Position numbers and translations under genes: made by a program. This document shows positions 3,347 through 58,825 of a stretch of DNA of 64,000 nucleotides, piece after piece (position 1 is the stretch's first letter; the number at the start of each line of letters is the position of its first letter). The stretch spans positions 7,576 to 71,575 of the forward strand of contig JBBEBR010000011.1 in NCBI GenBank assembly GCA_040882225.1, written 5' to 3'. A model generated the notes under the pieces. That model saw only the letters and a list, made by a program, of their open reading frames with translations. It did not search any database and was not told the DNA's origin. Source of the DNA: Balneolaceae bacterium (GTDB taxonomy: Bacteria; Bacteroidota; Rhodothermia; Balneolales; Balneolaceae).

Positions 3347-4075
3347 ATGCCGTCGGAGTCTTTAATTATTGTACCTACCTTTAATGAAGCCCACAACATT
3401 GGCCGCCTCCTAAAAAAGCTGATGTCTCTAAAACATGAAGTTGATGTTCTTGTTATTGATGACGGTTCTCCGGATGGCACGGCGGAAGAAGTAAGAAAAG
3501 TGCAGAACCAATTTCATGAACGGGTTTTACTGATTGAAAGGCCCGGGAAGTTGGGACTTGGAACAGCTTATGTAAAAGGATTCGATTTCGCTCTTGAAAA
3601 TGGCTACACCTACATATGTGAAATGGATGCGGATTTTTCGCACGATCCCTCAGATGTAGGCAAACTCATAGATGAGGTTAAAGCCGGAAGATCGGATGTC
3701 GCAATTGGTTCAAGATATGCCAACGGAATCAGTATTATCAACTGGCCGCTTAGCCGTTTAATTTTATCCTATTGCGCCAATATTTACGCCCGTACCATTA
3801 CAGGTTTACCTGTTTTTGATACTACTGCCGGTTTCAAATGCATCCACAGAAACGTGCTTGAAACTATTTCTATAGACAGGATAAAGTCGAACGGGTATGC
3901 CTTCCAAATTGAAATTCACTTTCGGGCATGGAGAGCCGGCTTCAAACTAAGTGAGGTTTCAATTGTATTCAGAGAACGTGAAGAAGGTGTATCAAAAATG
4001 TCGAAAGCAATAGTAAGAGAAGCTATTTGGCGAGTATGGGCCCTTAAATTCAGAAGTATTTTCGGAACTTTATAA
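3347..4075 (+). CDS. Polyprenol monophosphomannose synthase-like GT2 (Dpm1 family)
   Basis: IIVPTFNEAHNI, VIDDGSPDGT, GKLGLGTAY, EMDADFSHDP, D.T.GFK, SNGYAFQIE. Confidence 0.9.
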   Translation: MPSESLIIVPTFNEAHNIGRLLKKLMSLKHEVDVLVIDDGSPDGTAEEVRKVQNQFHERVLLIERPGKLGLGTAYVKGFDFALENGYTYICEMDADFSHDPSDVGKLIDEVKAGRSDVAIGSRYANGISIINWPLSRLILSYCANIYARTITGLPVFDTTAGFKCIHRNVLETISIDRIKSNGYAFQIEIHFRAWRAGFKLSEVSIVFREREEGVSKMSKAIVREAIWRVWALKFRSIFGTL

Positions 4076-4134
4076 AGCGTTATGCATCACAAGATGATTG
4101 CCTATATTAGCGCAGGAACAAATTAAACAGATTT

Positions 4135-5091
4135 ATGCAGTATTTAGATTTCGAACAACCTATAGCCGACCTGGAAGCTAAGATTGAAGAACTCAATAAT
4201 CTTTCTAATGTTAGCGATGGTGTTCTTGATAAAGAAATTGAAAGCCTCAAAAAAAGAGTAGACAAATTACGGAAGTCTATTTTTACCAATCTTACAAGAT
4301 GGCAAAAAGTGCAGCTTGCCCGCCATCCCGACCGGCCCTACACGCTGGATTATATCGAAAGAATCACCGAAGATTTTATTGAACTCCACGGCGACCGGTA
4401 TCATGCGGATGATAAAGCTATTGTTGGAGGCTTAGCTACCATCGACGGGCAATCTGTAATGATTATTGGCCACCAAAAGGGGAGAGATACCACCAGCCGA
4501 AAGTTTCGGAATTTTGGTATGGCAAATCCTGAAGGCTACCGAAAAGCTTACCGCCTGATGAAACTGGCTGGTAAATTTGACATCCCCATTATTACCTTAC
4601 TGGATACTCCAGGGGCTTTCCCGGGTTTGGAAGCCGAGGAACGCGGTCAGGCCGAAGCCATCGCCAAAAACCTGAAAATGATGGCGATGTTAGAAGTGCC
4701 TTTAATCACCGTTGTAATTGGTGAAGGCGCAAGTGGTGGTGCCATTGGTATTGGTATGGGGAATGAAGTTTATATGATGGAAAACACCTGGTACTCTGTA
4801 ATATCTCCCGAATCTTGTTCTTCAATTCTATGGAAAACCTGGGATTATAAGGAGCAGGCGGCAGCAGTTTTAAAGTTAACCGCTGTAGATTTAAAAGAGC
4901 TGAAAGTGATAGACGGTGTTATTGCAGAACCTCTTGGTGGAGCCCACCGAGATTATGAAGTTTCCGCGGCAGCCTTAAAAAAACAGGTTCTTCAAAGTTT
5001 GAAACGCCTCAAAAAGCTGAAGCCTGAAAAACTTGTAGAGCAACGCATCGACAAGTATGCTAAAATGGGTGCTTGGACAACCGCTAAATAG
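4135..5091 (+). CDS. accA: Acetyl-CoA carboxylase carboxyltransferase alpha subunit
   Basis: [66 protein letters not shown]. Confidence 0.98.
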
Positions 5092-53627: not shown

Positions 53628-54455
53628 TTATTGAGCCGGCACAATGAATAAACTGGCAATGGCATTCACTTCTTCCATTGTAAGTGGTTCATCCCAAGCT
53701 TCAGTTACAGCTTCGTCTGAGATATCGGTCACCGTGGTGGCATCTACTCCAGCGTGAGTGGTATTGGCTTCACCGTTATAAACAGCTTGGGCTTGTTCCG
53801 GCAGGCTGCCGCGGTTATCGCCTGTAATCCATGCTTCGATATCATCCAATCCACGCATGGTGCGCAGGCGGCGGACTTCAGCGGCGTGCCGGGCTTCAAC
53901 TGAATGAATGCGCAAGGCAGCTGTTAATATTTGGTCGCTGCTTTGTACATTTCCTGCCTGACCTTTATAAGCCCGAACGCCGGTGTCTTCGAAAGCCTGA
54001 GACAGGGCAAGATATTGCGGGTACTGATTGAAAGGATCGAAAGTGCCGCTGGCAGTGAAATCGAATTCGGGCTTTTCGATGGGTGTTCCGCCAAGCGAGT
54101 TGATAGTATCTTGTAGAAAAATGACATGCGCATTTTCATGCTTCTGTATAACATTAAATATAGCGCGGTCTTCATCAGGTATAATACCGATTTCGCACCC
54201 CATGTTATAATACTCAGCTTCGAGTAATTCCAGGGTAAGGGCAAAATTGAGCACTCCTACCACGTCTTCGGTAGATTGGGCGTTTGCCGGTTTTGAGAAG
54301 GCAGCTATCGCGCCAAATGGAAGAGCCGCAAGCGCAAAATTTTTGCTATAGTTGCTCATTTTGGCTAATGCATCTTTTCTGCTGAAAAAACGTTCGCTTT
54401 CTTCTTTGTTACTGGTTTCGAGGTTAAACTCGTCTAATAATTTTAAAAAACTCAT
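53628..54455 (-). CDS. Ferritin-like domain protein (Ferritin_2 / desiccation-associated type)
   Basis: VLNFALTLELLEAEYY, HENAHV, AFEDTGVRAYKG, IHSVEARHAA. Confidence 0.85.
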   Translation of the reverse strand: MSFLKLLDEFNLETSNKEESERFFSRKDALAKMSNYSKNFALAALPFGAIAAFSKPANAQSTEDVVGVLNFALTLELLEAEYYNMGCEIGIIPDEDRAIFNVIQKHENAHVIFLQDTINSLGGTPIEKPEFDFTASGTFDPFNQYPQYLALSQAFEDTGVRAYKGQAGNVQSSDQILTAALRIHSVEARHAAEVRRLRTMRGLDDIEAWITGDNRGSLPEQAQAVYNGEANTTHAGVDATTVTDISDEAVTEAWDEPLTMEEVNAIASLFIVPAQ

Positions 54456-54479
54456 GGTGATCTCCGTATAAAGATTAAA

Positions 54480-55244
54480 TTAGTTGTTAGGTTGGGGGAG
54501 TTCGCTGGCATCAATCTCATCCACTATGAATGCGGATGCGGCAGCTAAAACGTCGTTGGGGGTATTCACAACATCCAATCCATTTTCGTCTATAACATCA
54601 TCGCCGGCAAAAAAACCGGTACGAGGTTTCAATAAATCGCGGATTGCAGCTGCATGGCGGGCTTCAACCGACACAATTTTTCCGGCTACCAGCAGAAGCT
54701 CGGTATCTTCCAGAAGTTGCCCTGCTCCGTTGTAAGCAGATACTCCCAAATCTTCGAATACTTGTGCCGTGTTTAGCACACTGGCGCAATCATCAAAATC
54801 TACCGAACTGAAATCCACTTCCAGCCCCCGGATGGCGTTATCTCCCAAAGCAGCTTTATAAAAGTCGGCGTGAGCTACTTCATGCTCTCGCAATGCTTCC
54901 AGTATACGGCCCTCATCAGAGCTCATGTTGTGATATGGGTTCTCCAGCACCTGTATATAATAAGCGGCTTCGAGTTGTTCTAAGGCATAGGCGAAATTAA
55001 GAATGCCGATATCACCGGCTCCCAGCTTTACAACATCAGCATTTTTATCGGTAGAACCGTTATTTCCTCCAGATTTGTTATCGAGAACTCCTAAGCCGGA
55101 GTCTTGGCAGCCGTACATGCTTAGCGCCATAAAAGACGCAGCAGATAGTCCTGAAAATTTAAAAAAATTCTTCCTTGAAATTGGCCGCCGGGTAGCACAA
55201 ACCAAATCACTAGATTGTCCTGTTTCTTCTCTTGATTTTGACAT
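54480..55244 (-). CDS. Ferritin-like domain protein with Tat/lipoprotein-like leader
   Basis: SRKNFFK leader, MYGC; ILNFAYALEQLEAAYY, HEVAH, FEDLGVSAYNG, IVSVEARHAA. Confidence 0.85.
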   Translation of the reverse strand: MSKSREETGQSSDLVCATRRPISRKNFFKFSGLSAASFMALSMYGCQDSGLGVLDNKSGGNNGSTDKNADVVKLGAGDIGILNFAYALEQLEAAYYIQVLENPYHNMSSDEGRILEALREHEVAHADFYKAALGDNAIRGLEVDFSSVDFDDCASVLNTAQVFEDLGVSAYNGAGQLLEDTELLLVAGKIVSVEARHAAAIRDLLKPRTGFFAGDDVIDENGLDVVNTPNDVLAAASAFIVDEIDASELPQPNN

Positions 55245-58292: not shown

Positions 58293-58356
58293 ATTTAGTG
58301 TTGAAGAGACATAAATCAGCCGTATCGAAAAGTTGCTATTAGACGCAAAAGCTCGC

Positions 58357-58364
58357 TATATTTG
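58357..58364 (+). promoter_or_regulatory. Bacteroidota-type -7 promoter element for tRNA-Ser
   Basis: TATATTTG (TAnnTTTG) 15 nt before the tRNA, with TTG about 25 nt further upstream. Confidence 0.55.
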
Positions 58365-58378
58365 TGACCCTTCAAAAT

Positions 58379-58467
58379 GGAGAGGTGGCTGAGTGGCTGA
58401 AAGCGCTCCCCTGCTAAGGGAGTTTACCCGGAAACGGGTAACGAGGGTTCGAATCCCTCCCTCTCCG
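58379..58467 (+). tRNA. tRNA-Ser (anticodon GCT), CCA not encoded
   Basis: Acceptor GGAGAGG/CCTCTCC, anticodon stem CTCCC/GGGAG with loop CTGCTAA, long variable arm TACCCG-GAAA-CGGGTA, GGTTCGAATCC, discriminator G. Confidence 0.97.
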
Positions 58468-58481
58468 CATTCTTTTTTTTT

Positions 58482-58592
58482 CCGGAAACGGGTAACGCGG
58501 GTTCTGCCGGAGGCATCCCGTTGGGAGAATCCCTCCCTCTGTGCATTCTCTTTTACTTTCTGGAAACGGGTAACGTGGGTTCTGCCAAAGGA
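58482..58592 (+). repeat. Two degenerate tandem copies of the tRNA-Ser 3' half
   Basis: CCGGAAACGGGTAACGCGGGTTC..GAATCCCTCCCTCTGTGCA (58482-58545) and CTGGAAACGGGTAACGTGGGTTC (58560-58582). Confidence 0.9.
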
Positions 58593-58795
58593 ATCCGATC
58601 AACGAATGGCGAAGCACGATTTGATAAGTTATAGATGGGGCATCCAAATTGGCTCCGGATAAACTTTGGAAATTTGCTTTCCATCGTTCGGCTCACTCTG
58701 AACAGGACAAAACTAAATACTTGGAGAGACGCATGATGGAAGTGAGCTTTTCCGAAATGATCTGCGGTTGATGAACTGAAAGTTATTGAGCTTAA

Positions 58796-58825
58796 CCTCT
58801 CGGCTCAACGAGCCGGGGTACTTTT
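58796..58825. terminator. Hairpin between convergent tRNA region and rarA, possible terminator
   Basis: CCTCTCGGCTC-AAC-GAGCCGGGG followed by TACTTTT. Confidence 0.4.

Follow-up and report, generated by a model that had tools for sequence, protein, structure and literature searches.

tRNA genes are classical landing sites of integrase-borne islands, and partial tRNA copies are routinely read as the scars of such islands. REP/REPIN sequences are short palindromic repeats (REPs of ~35 nt) that multiply in a genome, carry a conserved GTAG head, depend on a HUH/Y1 transposase, and flank the gene of their presumed mover, the RAYT transposase. Three further described systems bear on the locus reported here: (i) in the mobile endonuclease ORFs (mORFs) of fungal mitochondria (Allomyces macrogynus atp6; Glomus atp6, atp9, cox2, and nad3), an endonuclease (LAGLIDADG; GIY-YIG in atp9) moves with a replacement 3′ end of its target gene, and after insertion the gene is functional and its native 3′ end is left downstream as a dead copy (PMC3630166); (ii) SegB of phages T4/T6 is a free-standing GIY-YIG homing endonuclease in a tRNA gene cluster (PMC2330249, PMC13096335), cuts inside tRNA genes at RAWTSGAAC (the T-loop DNA GTTCSAWTY when read on the opposite strand), and promotes tandem amplification of tRNA plus segB (PMC13096335); and (iii) double-hairpin elements (DHEs) are dispersed mitochondrial hairpin pairs that are thought to be mobile by a mechanism that is not known (PMC10085805, PMC2800124).

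The window analyzed here is a 64,000-nucleotide (64-kb) stretch of chromosomal DNA from a Gracilimonas/Balneola-like Balneolaceae bacterium, in which a functional tRNA-Ser(GCT) gene is followed by two partial copies of itself. The gene order is birA, tilS, hpt, tRNA-Ser(GCT), the two partial copies, rarA (opposite strand), a histidine kinase gene, and an outer-membrane protein gene. The Hpt of the window is 91% identical to the protein of a Balneolaceae MAG and 78–84% identical to those of Gracilimonas species. A contig of a same-species MAG (L001) ends just past hpt. The features of the locus are listed below; the caret marks the site at which the copies are interrupted, and D1, D2, and D4 are repeat families of the window.

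58333–58362, + strand: weak sigma-70-like promoter match 5′ of the tRNA (9/12 hexamer matches; shuffles yield 0.6 such sites, and the match is not significant alone)
58379–58468, + strand: functional tRNA-Ser(GCT), called by ARAGORN and Rfam (62.3 bits), the sole tRNA call there
58445–58454, + strand: intact T-loop GGGTTC^GAAT, the unsplit form of the site interrupted in the copies
58469–58481, + strand: T-rich trailer 1, attcttttttttt, duplicated after the first copy (D2, D4)
58482–58504, + strand: left arm A′ of unit 1, CCGGAAACGGGTAACGCGGGTTC, comprising the variable arm, the 5′ T-stem strand, and TTC
58505–58515, + strand: hairpin 1, TGCC-GGA-GGCA (4-bp stem, 3-nt loop), with TGCC/GGCA covarying to TGGC/GCCA across loci
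58516–58526, + strand: hairpin 2, TCCC-GTT-GGGA (4-bp stem, 3-nt loop)
58527–58544, + strand: right arm B′ of unit 1, GAATCCCTCCCTCTGTGC, comprising GAAT, the 3′ T-stem strand, and the 3′ acceptor strand (D4)
58545–58559, + strand: trailer 2, attctcttttacttt, a diverged copy of trailer 1 (D2, D4)
58560–58582, + strand: left arm A″ of unit 2, the same segment as in A′
58583–58596, + strand: truncated double hairpin TGCCAAAGG joined to AATCC at the array tail, fitting a 14-nt internal deletion

The segment CYGGAAACGGGTAACGNGGGTTC is repeated at 58482–58504 and 58560–58582, and neither copy includes the 5′ strand of the acceptor stem, the D arm, or the anticodon arm. The repeats of the window occur above chance: GGAAACGGGTAACG (family D1) has 3 matches against 0.21 expected, and a further repeat has 2 against 0.09 expected. 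Unit 1 reads GGGTTC, then TGCCGGAGGCA TCCCGTTGGGA, and then GAATCCCTCCCTCTGTGCA, and its 22-nt insert (58505–58526) exactly separates TTC from GAAT; the two perfect 4-bp hairpins of the original prediction were thus recovered at this position. Compared with the tRNA, A′ has a single mismatch (A to C at T-stem position 2), B′ has two (CC to GT), and unit 2 also has two. The insert of unit 2 had been described as a related one, TGCC-AAA-GGAA. The relationship stands, but the sequence TGCCAAAGGAATCC is best read as the same module minus 14 nt internally, TGCCAAAGG[CATCCCNNNGGGAG]AATCC; tRNA similarity stops after AATCC (58596). Unit 1 starts 13 nt past the tRNA end, and the repeats are separated by only 13–15 nt. 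The T-rich trailer is duplicated along with the tRNA part, and the array is therefore a tandem repeat whose spacings are 54 and 78 nt; unit 2 is 85% identical to unit 1 over 48 nt (D2).

The folding energies of the window copies are ordinary (z −0.6 to −1.7); the evidence for the hairpins is drawn from comparison between loci and not from thermodynamics. A search of 58482–58600 with Rfam 15 returned nothing at E ≤ 10 except a chance PYLIS_3 match, and elsewhere tRNA and tRNA look-alike models. Within the window, the double-hairpin module was found at this one locus only. A tRNA intron (archaeal bulge-helix-bulge or bacterial group I) was considered for the insert and rejected: no complete tRNA surrounds it, 22 nt is too short for a group I core, the hairpins form closed loops and not 3-nt bulges, and an intact tRNA always lies nearby.

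The tandem layout and the short periods could suggest a one-off replication-slippage duplication or an assembly artifact, as could the break of the same-species MAG contig at this place. However, the array is present in unitig contigs of four separate sediment-metagenome runs (58379/58442–58850) with 0 differences and 0 gaps, and is therefore no assembly artifact; no length variants or joints of the array were found in the assembler contigs of these four runs. Dozens of unrelated loci also carry the module at the corresponding position (described below). The original prediction would have been refuted by a motif found beside no other tRNA sequence together with relatives lacking an island at this tRNA, or by an assembly artifact; the motif instead adjoins many other tRNA fragments, and relatives differ in its presence or absence at this tRNA. 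Slippage or artifact is thus excluded by the recurrence together with the four identical runs, and we give it next to no weight.

Comparison with relatives revealed that the tRNA-Ser(GCT) gene lies 3′ of hpt in all 34 Balneolaceae loci recovered through Hpt. Most of these loci have a single tRNA 3′ end, and about 20 relatives represent the empty site. ORF-less units are present in (i) L002, with TGGC-GAG-GCCA TCCC-TTT-GGGG; (ii) L015, with two units and TGCC-GAA-GGCA TCCC-AAT-GGGA; and (iii) L017, with TGCC-GAA-GGCA CTCC-TTC-GGAG. In all three, the left arm matches the variable arm of its own genome and the insert geometry is constant, with the stems changed on both sides. A full element with an ORF (described below) is located at birA-tilS-hpt-tRNA-Ser(GCT), that is to say, at the window's own locus, in the isolate Balneola sp. 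MJW-20 (L204), and another at hpt–tRNA-Ser(GCT) in a Balneolaceae-type contig (L149); a third locus (L022) retains the ORF beside a degenerate copy. Five Gracilimonas genomes carry a different module of 115–130 nt, which ends with a copy of the last 17–18 nt of the tRNA. The 36 Balneolaceae loci at this tRNA thus comprise full elements, ORF-less units, a different module, and empty sites, and this varied occupancy makes the site a polymorphic hot spot. In the window and its 34 relatives, the double-hairpin module is confined to this tRNA.

Metagenome contigs were scanned with the pattern TGSCNNNGSCAYYCCNNNGGRRGAATCC, in which the left flank was free and complementarity at the degenerate positions was not demanded. 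The scan returned at least 107 distinct matches. Among the matches listed, 74 have GGTTC directly to the left and lie inside tRNA-like sequence, 22 of the 107 lie in REP-like repeats (CGAA-module-GAATCC), and 11 are chance-like. The module is therefore present in at least 74 distinct non-functional tRNA copies of metagenomes, which bears out the proposal that a structured element recurs precisely in the T-loop of tRNA gene fragments. Of the units listed, 80 could be evaluated. For 60 of these, an intact tRNA that shares the acceptor strand lies upstream in the same orientation (median distance, 96 nt), and for 2 others the matching intact tRNA lies downstream (62/80 in total). The tRNAs cover at least 19 isoacceptor types, for Ser, Glu, Val, Pro, Tyr, Arg, Met, Leu, Ala, Gly, and Cys. 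Tandem arrays are common, with four units in L113 and L084 and three in L120, L188, and L106, and the final unit of an array is often truncated (the window, L106, and L015).

The geometry of the module is rigid. In all 70 aligned units, it is a pair of 11-nt palindromes in which a 4-bp stem closes a 3-nt loop, and when inserts of 14–44 nt were allowed, no insert length other than 22 nt appeared; longer hairpins occur in two array-end copies (L095 and L102). Among the tRNA units listed, 74/74 show complementarity at the free S-S position of hairpin 1 (62 C-G and 12 G-C), compared with 5/11 chance matches, and at the two free Y-R positions of hairpin 2, 142/148 cases are Watson–Crick pairs. Across loci, the TCCC/GGGA stem of hairpin 2 changes to TTCC/GGAA, CTCC/GGAG, or CCCC/GGGG. 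In the alignment of the 70 units (A1), 97% of the cells are paired and 9 of 13 pairs are changed on both sides, values that were reached by 0/500 shuffles but that are favored by the selection of the units. Neighboring units outside the pattern selection carry the compensated variants TCCC/GGGA, TTCC/GGAA, and TCAC/GTGA.

The loops are mirrored, with R-N-A in hairpin 1 (99% purine first, 85% A last) and T-N-Y in hairpin 2. The 22-mer therefore has a dyad axis like that of its target TTC^GAA, and this symmetry points to duplex or two-strand DNA, rather than one RNA strand. A long-hairpin or kissing-loop fold, for which the consensus offers a 7-bp alternative, was rejected: covariation between the loops is absent (122 complementary positions against 121 expected), and the TGGC/GCCA variants break the fold.

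These data bear on the possibility that the interrupted copies function as RNA (as a tRNA-like 3′ element, a decoy, or a processing signal transcribed with the tRNA or with the nuclease mRNA) and that the hairpins are RNA structure. The units always lie on the tRNA strand downstream of the tRNA promoter, their stems covary, and some copies are full-length cloverleaves in which only a loop is expanded (L092, L160, L205, and L208), all of which such RNAs would explain. By contrast, the mirror symmetry of loops and flanks is a property of a duplex or of two DNA strands. G-T and C-A departures from pairing are equally rare (4 T-G and 2 C-A, too few to tell RNA from DNA), T-stems of the units are often weakened, and most units lack the 5′ acceptor strand. 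Furthermore, no Rfam family covers the stretch, it occurs in no RNA run, and terminal units decay (unit 2 of the window, L015, and L106). The functional-RNA reading fits the symmetry and the decay poorly, and we consider it improbable.

In the longer units, the intact tRNA is separated from the interrupted copy by a small ORF. With a profile derived from three of these ORFs, GIY-YIG frames were identified near ~20 of 91 units, in each case on the strand of the tRNA. The ORF (80 aa) matches PF01541, and its closest structural matches are the UPF0213 proteins 1YWL and 1ZG2; stand-alone bacterial UPF0213 proteins were grouped with Slx1 by Dunin-Horkawicz et al. (PMC1564403). In L149, the order is the tRNA, a trailer with a terminator, an 81-aa ORF, TTTATATGGAAACATGTAACGAGCGGTTC, TGCCACAGGCA TCCCTATGGGA, GAATCCCTCCCTCTCCGC, and the trailer again, and L141 contains two complete units in tandem. 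Complete elements span only 300–450 nt. A search from the protein side yielded 188 homologs in Balneolaceae, Bacteroidia, Cytophagales, Saprospirales, Sphingobacteriales, and Ignavibacteriota. Seven of these (L203–L209), chosen from long contigs or isolates, were examined, and 7/7 adjoin an intact tRNA and a hairpin-interrupted copy; the proteins of L204 and L205 measure 80–83 aa. When neighboring frames were clustered, GIY-YIG was the only recurrent cargo apart from artifactual repeat translations; one 23S_rRNA_IVP ORF was seen, in L183. No GIY-YIG frame was found anywhere in the 64-kb window, and the window units are therefore ORF-less derivatives and not complete members; they are tied to the nuclease cassette solely through architectural homology.

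The content of the complete elements also bears on the attR scars invoked in the original prediction, namely, that the copies are attL/attR-type remnants of integrase-encoding islands or prophages repeatedly gained and lost at tRNA-Ser. Such events classically leave duplicated tRNA 3′ ends (PMC9897764), and the locus is polymorphic among relatives. However, the flanks encode hpt, tilS, birA, rarA, and a histidine kinase and, as had been noted at the outset, no integrase, and the repeats lie just 13–15 nt apart. No integrase or recombinase was found near the seven GIY-YIG homolog loci or inside the complete elements, which at 300–450 nt carry the GIY-YIG ORF as their recurrent cargo. The motif is missing from 2.9 million viral contigs except for one chance match of the hairpin pattern in a coding region; the tRNA 3′-half pattern and the type B motif, with which phage or provirus attP sites were sought, matched 0 viral contigs. 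In addition, the insert structure is conserved across phyla, unlike scars. The lack of a recombinase, together with the size and content of the complete elements, excludes integrase scars as the origin of the array, and we regard this origin as very improbable.

The arrangement of the parts varies between loci. The order in L205 (Rosettibacter firmus), L208, and L160 is a full-length interrupted copy, the ORF, and the intact tRNA. L207 has the module in the anticodon loop (CTTG-module-AAAA) of a 5′ fragment located upstream. L203 has a second module, in a D-loop (GGTC-module-GAAT), and its nuclease gene and tRNA are bracketed by the module on both sides. Modules occupy two or three loops of one dead copy in L093, L119, and L177. 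Across all these contexts, the flanks approximate TTY^RAA. Comparison of the units with their resident tRNAs revealed 26 T-stem changes to the left of the module and 9 to the right, 6 of the 9 coming from two loci with an entirely foreign arm. The module therefore lies on a boundary: the DNA to its right tracks the resident gene, and the DNA to its left does not. The idea that T-stem pairing is preserved by compensation, as read from L086 and L102, was discarded, because the wider count shows that the left strand drifts and that the T-stem is often weakened.

Taken together, these results make it probable that the window contains a functional tRNA-Ser(GCT) followed by two decaying, ORF-less tandem units of a small tRNA-gene element family. 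A complete element of this family comprises, in order, (i) the intact tRNA (GGTTC GAATCC through to the 3′ end); (ii) a trailer, often with a terminator; (iii) the 80-aa GIY-YIG ORF on the tRNA strand; (iv) a 5′-truncated copy of the same tRNA up to GGTTC; (v) the 22-bp double mini-hairpin; and (vi) GAATCC through to the 3′ end again. The block of tRNA 3′ end, trailer, ORF, partial tRNA, and hairpins in effect occupies the T-loop between TTC and GAAT, an arrangement that regenerates one working tRNA and leaves a second, dead copy with its T-loop site split by the hairpins.

If the element moves in this way, the nuclease would be the likely initiator, making a break in or near tRNA-loop DNA (TTC^GAA), by analogy with SegB at GTTCGAATY. 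Recombinational repair may then copy or integrate the block, as suggested by the mitochondrial mobile endonuclease ORFs with their replacement terminus. The hairpins may mark the end of the element and spoil the spare copy's site; they may also serve directly as a branched-DNA substrate or be a mobile unit of their own. Short units such as those of the window would be non-autonomous or deleted derivatives, and tandem copies could arise by repeated insertion or by unequal recombination, with the last unit eroding. All layouts could be derived from a single piece in circular permutation (partial tRNA, module, the remaining tRNA, trailer in some cases, and ORF) that recombined with the resident tRNA on one side of the module. 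Exchange to the right of the module would place the intact gene ahead of the dead copy, as in the window; exchange to its left would give the reversed order (L205, L207, and L208); either way, one tRNA would stay intact.

Several observations count against the nuclease cassette as the whole explanation: the ORF is near only about one fifth of the units; the intact tRNA retains a perfect TTCGAAT, and a site-directed nuclease would cut the carrier genome too; the 80-aa GIY-YIG protein has no recognizable DNA-binding domain; and the module is also found in D-loops and anticodon loops of dead copies and in REP-like repeats unrelated to tRNA. The occurrence in several loops and in REP-like repeats suggests that the hairpin pair can move alone, and a simple role as the end of an element fails to explain it.

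The 22-bp double hairpin might accordingly be an autonomous miniature palindromic element, equivalent in bacteria to mitochondrial double-hairpin elements or GC clusters, that inserts at short TTY^RAA palindromes and is tolerated only in non-functional DNA, with the GIY-YIG cassette merely providing spare tRNA copies, or the enzyme in trans. To our knowledge, no 22-bp element transposes alone. The range of sites (T-, D-, and anticodon loops and REP-like repeats, with the flanks TTC^GAAT, GTC^GAAT, TTG^AAA, and GAA^GAAT), the presence of two or three modules in a single dead tRNA copy, and the dyad-symmetric loops (R-N-A versus T-N-Y) would all be expected of such an element, and the fungal double-hairpin elements have likewise been described as potentially mobile (PMC10085805, PMC2800124). 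On the other hand, the presence of the module in the spare copy at every one of the seven GIY-YIG loci is a tighter association than independent colonization predicts, and the restriction to a single tRNA in the window and its relatives does not favor it either. We consider an autonomous hairpin pair rather unlikely; it is nevertheless a live alternative, which overlaps with the tRNA-gene element family that we prefer and does not exclude it.

How the tRNA-gene element family compares with the described systems can now be stated. As in the REP/REPIN system, a nuclease gene (with its tRNA) is flanked by the module on both sides in L203; unlike that system, both the GTAG head and the HUH/Y1 transposase are missing. 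The mORFs share the duplicated 3′ terminus downstream of a functional gene and the presence or absence among close relatives, both of which were found here. Unlike in the mORFs, (i) the target is a bacterial chromosomal tRNA gene; (ii) the nuclease, predicted from sequence, is a minimal 80-aa GIY-YIG protein of the UPF0213/Slx1 type; (iii) the dead copy retains sequence upstream of the site, always with the 22-bp double hairpin exactly there; and (iv) tandem and ORF-less units are common. SegB is similar in that a GIY-YIG gene lies amid tRNA genes and the tRNA-linked units are in tandem. SegB, however, is a 221-aa phage enzyme with a DNA-binding part, for which no double hairpin or interrupted tRNA copies have been described, whereas the proteins here belong to the Slx1-like branch and are chromosomal; the nuclease ORF had no match in plasmids and, in phages, only two weak Staphylococcus phage matches.

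The DHEs are, like the module, short G+C-rich pairs of adjacent hairpins with a conserved structure at intergenic sites or tolerant sites of RNA genes. They measure ~26–79 nt, are mitochondrial, and have no fixed target, whereas the module here is a rigid 11+11 nt, is bacterial, is located at TTY^RAA (mostly in the T-loop of a spare copy), and is linked to a nuclease; the likeness seen here is one of structure. Of the features by which DHEs are recognized, paired hairpins and conservation were seen here, and several kinds of site were seen in the metagenome loci, with one locus in the window. The att repeats of integrase islands and prophages (PMC9897764) share the direct repeat of the tRNA 3′ part downstream of a functional gene; unlike them, the array here has no integrase, no island, a spacing of 13–15 nt, and a conserved structured insert within the repeat.

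Neither the module nor its link to a GIY-YIG protein in bacteria was described in the full-text literature searched or in Rfam 15, although absence there is no proof of novelty. The array thus apparently represents a widespread and undescribed small tRNA-linked element. It resembles two kinds of element, homing-endonuclease cassettes with target duplication and double-hairpin elements, and it has a fair probability of being a separate type of bacterial mobile element. More specifically, and only tentatively, we propose that minimal UPF0213/Slx1-like GIY-YIG proteins of Bacteroidota, Ignavibacteriota, and Balneolales form, together with the 22-bp double hairpin, a new kind of bacterial mobile element, in which a structure-specific nuclease would drive insertion of the module at TTY^RAA in the loops of tRNA genes and part-duplicate the tRNA, leaving one copy functional.

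The data reveal a further class of tRNA-linked element, one that has no integrase and is widespread in Bacteroidota/Ignavibacteriota/Balneolales. Such an element breaks metagenome assemblies at tRNA genes, and the partial tRNA genes that it leaves could be misannotated. The stand-alone UPF0213/Slx1-like GIY-YIG proteins, a very common orphan family, are now linked to a concrete DNA structure and target, which makes their role testable. The element is also a bacterial counterpart to two mitochondrial puzzles, the double-hairpin elements and the endonuclease ORFs with replacement gene ends, and it parallels SegB. Should the nuclease recognize the double hairpin or T-loop DNA, few known site- or structure-specific nucleases would be as small, and if the reading as a new mobile element is true, it would provide a function for the orphan family and a bacterial model for the mitochondrial double-hairpin elements.

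The 22-nt double hairpin was not confined to the T-loop. In complete cassettes (a GIY-YIG ORF, a tRNA and an interrupted copy; L203 and L207) and in further compared loci, it occupied other loops of non-functional tRNA copies, of which one may hold two or three modules. Two kinds of site were occupied: (i) the D-loop, with the flanks GGTC and GAAT; and (ii) the anticodon loop, with the flanks CTTG and AAAA or TTGG and AAAG. Joining of a D-loop module with a T-loop module, by deletion or recombination, appears to have produced the chimeric pseudo-tRNA of metagenome contig L090, in which the acceptor 5' strand and the D arm up to GGTC are followed by the double hairpin and then by GAATCC with the T-stem and the acceptor 3' strand.

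Double hairpins in other tRNA loops and in chimeras
L203 2357-2378, L207 ~1400-1425, L093, L119, L177: D-loop or anticodon loop of dead tRNA copies
L090 4790-4880, L196: chimeric pseudo-tRNA with double hairpin

On metagenome contig L183 (~3900-4400), two hairpin-bearing tRNA-Ser copies flank an ORF of the 23S_rRNA_IVP family (PF05635, four-helix-bundle), which is another small multi-copy gene family in the same niche.

Relatives carry other repeats after tRNA-Ser(GCT). Five Gracilimonas genomes have, downstream of this tRNA, a module of 115-130 nt that is unlike the 22-nt double hairpin.

Gracilimonas module
L007 14077-14209, L009, L016, L018, L019: 115-130-nt module downstream of tRNA-Ser(GCT)

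It consists of a new trailer with a terminator, the conserved motif GGGATGAGAAGCYTGTCCCGC, which was not found in viral contigs, approximately 33 variable nt, GCGGGA, and a second copy of the tRNA's 3'-terminal 17-18 nt. The module folds into two nested stems, and because the stem sequences are invariant among the five genomes, covariation gives no verdict on this fold. The trailers of L012, L014, L016 and L017 contain runs of a short GAACA/CGAAC-rich repeat, such as aacaccgaacattcaaaaccgaac, and ~100 nt beyond lies a copy in inverted orientation; this looks like a further small repeat family at this site.

In several MAGs (L001, L002, L017 and L019), contigs end within or just ahead of tRNA-linked repeats; L001, a 3762-nt contig of GCA_040903325.1 with an identical Hpt, stops 35 nt past hpt. 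Short-read assemblies are broken at tRNA genes by the tRNA-linked units.

Neither the hairpin nor the inverted repeat listed below resembles the tRNA or the module, and the protein pair is unrelated to the tRNA copies.

Other features of the window
53628-55244, minus strand: a neighbouring pair of secreted proteins of Ferritin_2-like/DUF4439 type, upstream of birA
58679-58741: imperfect inverted repeat of 16 nt, within the 236-nt spacer that follows unit 2 (the second partial copy)
58798-58818: terminator-like hairpin, 9 pairs then TACTTTTAAC, between the array and the rarA end

Double hairpins of identical type also lie outside tRNA copies, within REP-like intergenic repeats of peat and soil metagenome contigs.

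REP-like repeats with double hairpin
L088, L103, L105, L108, L132, L157, among others: contigs from peat and soil metagenomes

The module is there preceded by GTCATTCTGA..CGAA and followed by GAATCC, and some of these contigs bear several modules, other intergenic positions being occupied as well. The occupation of REP-like and other intergenic positions suggests that the double hairpin spreads independently of tRNA genes.
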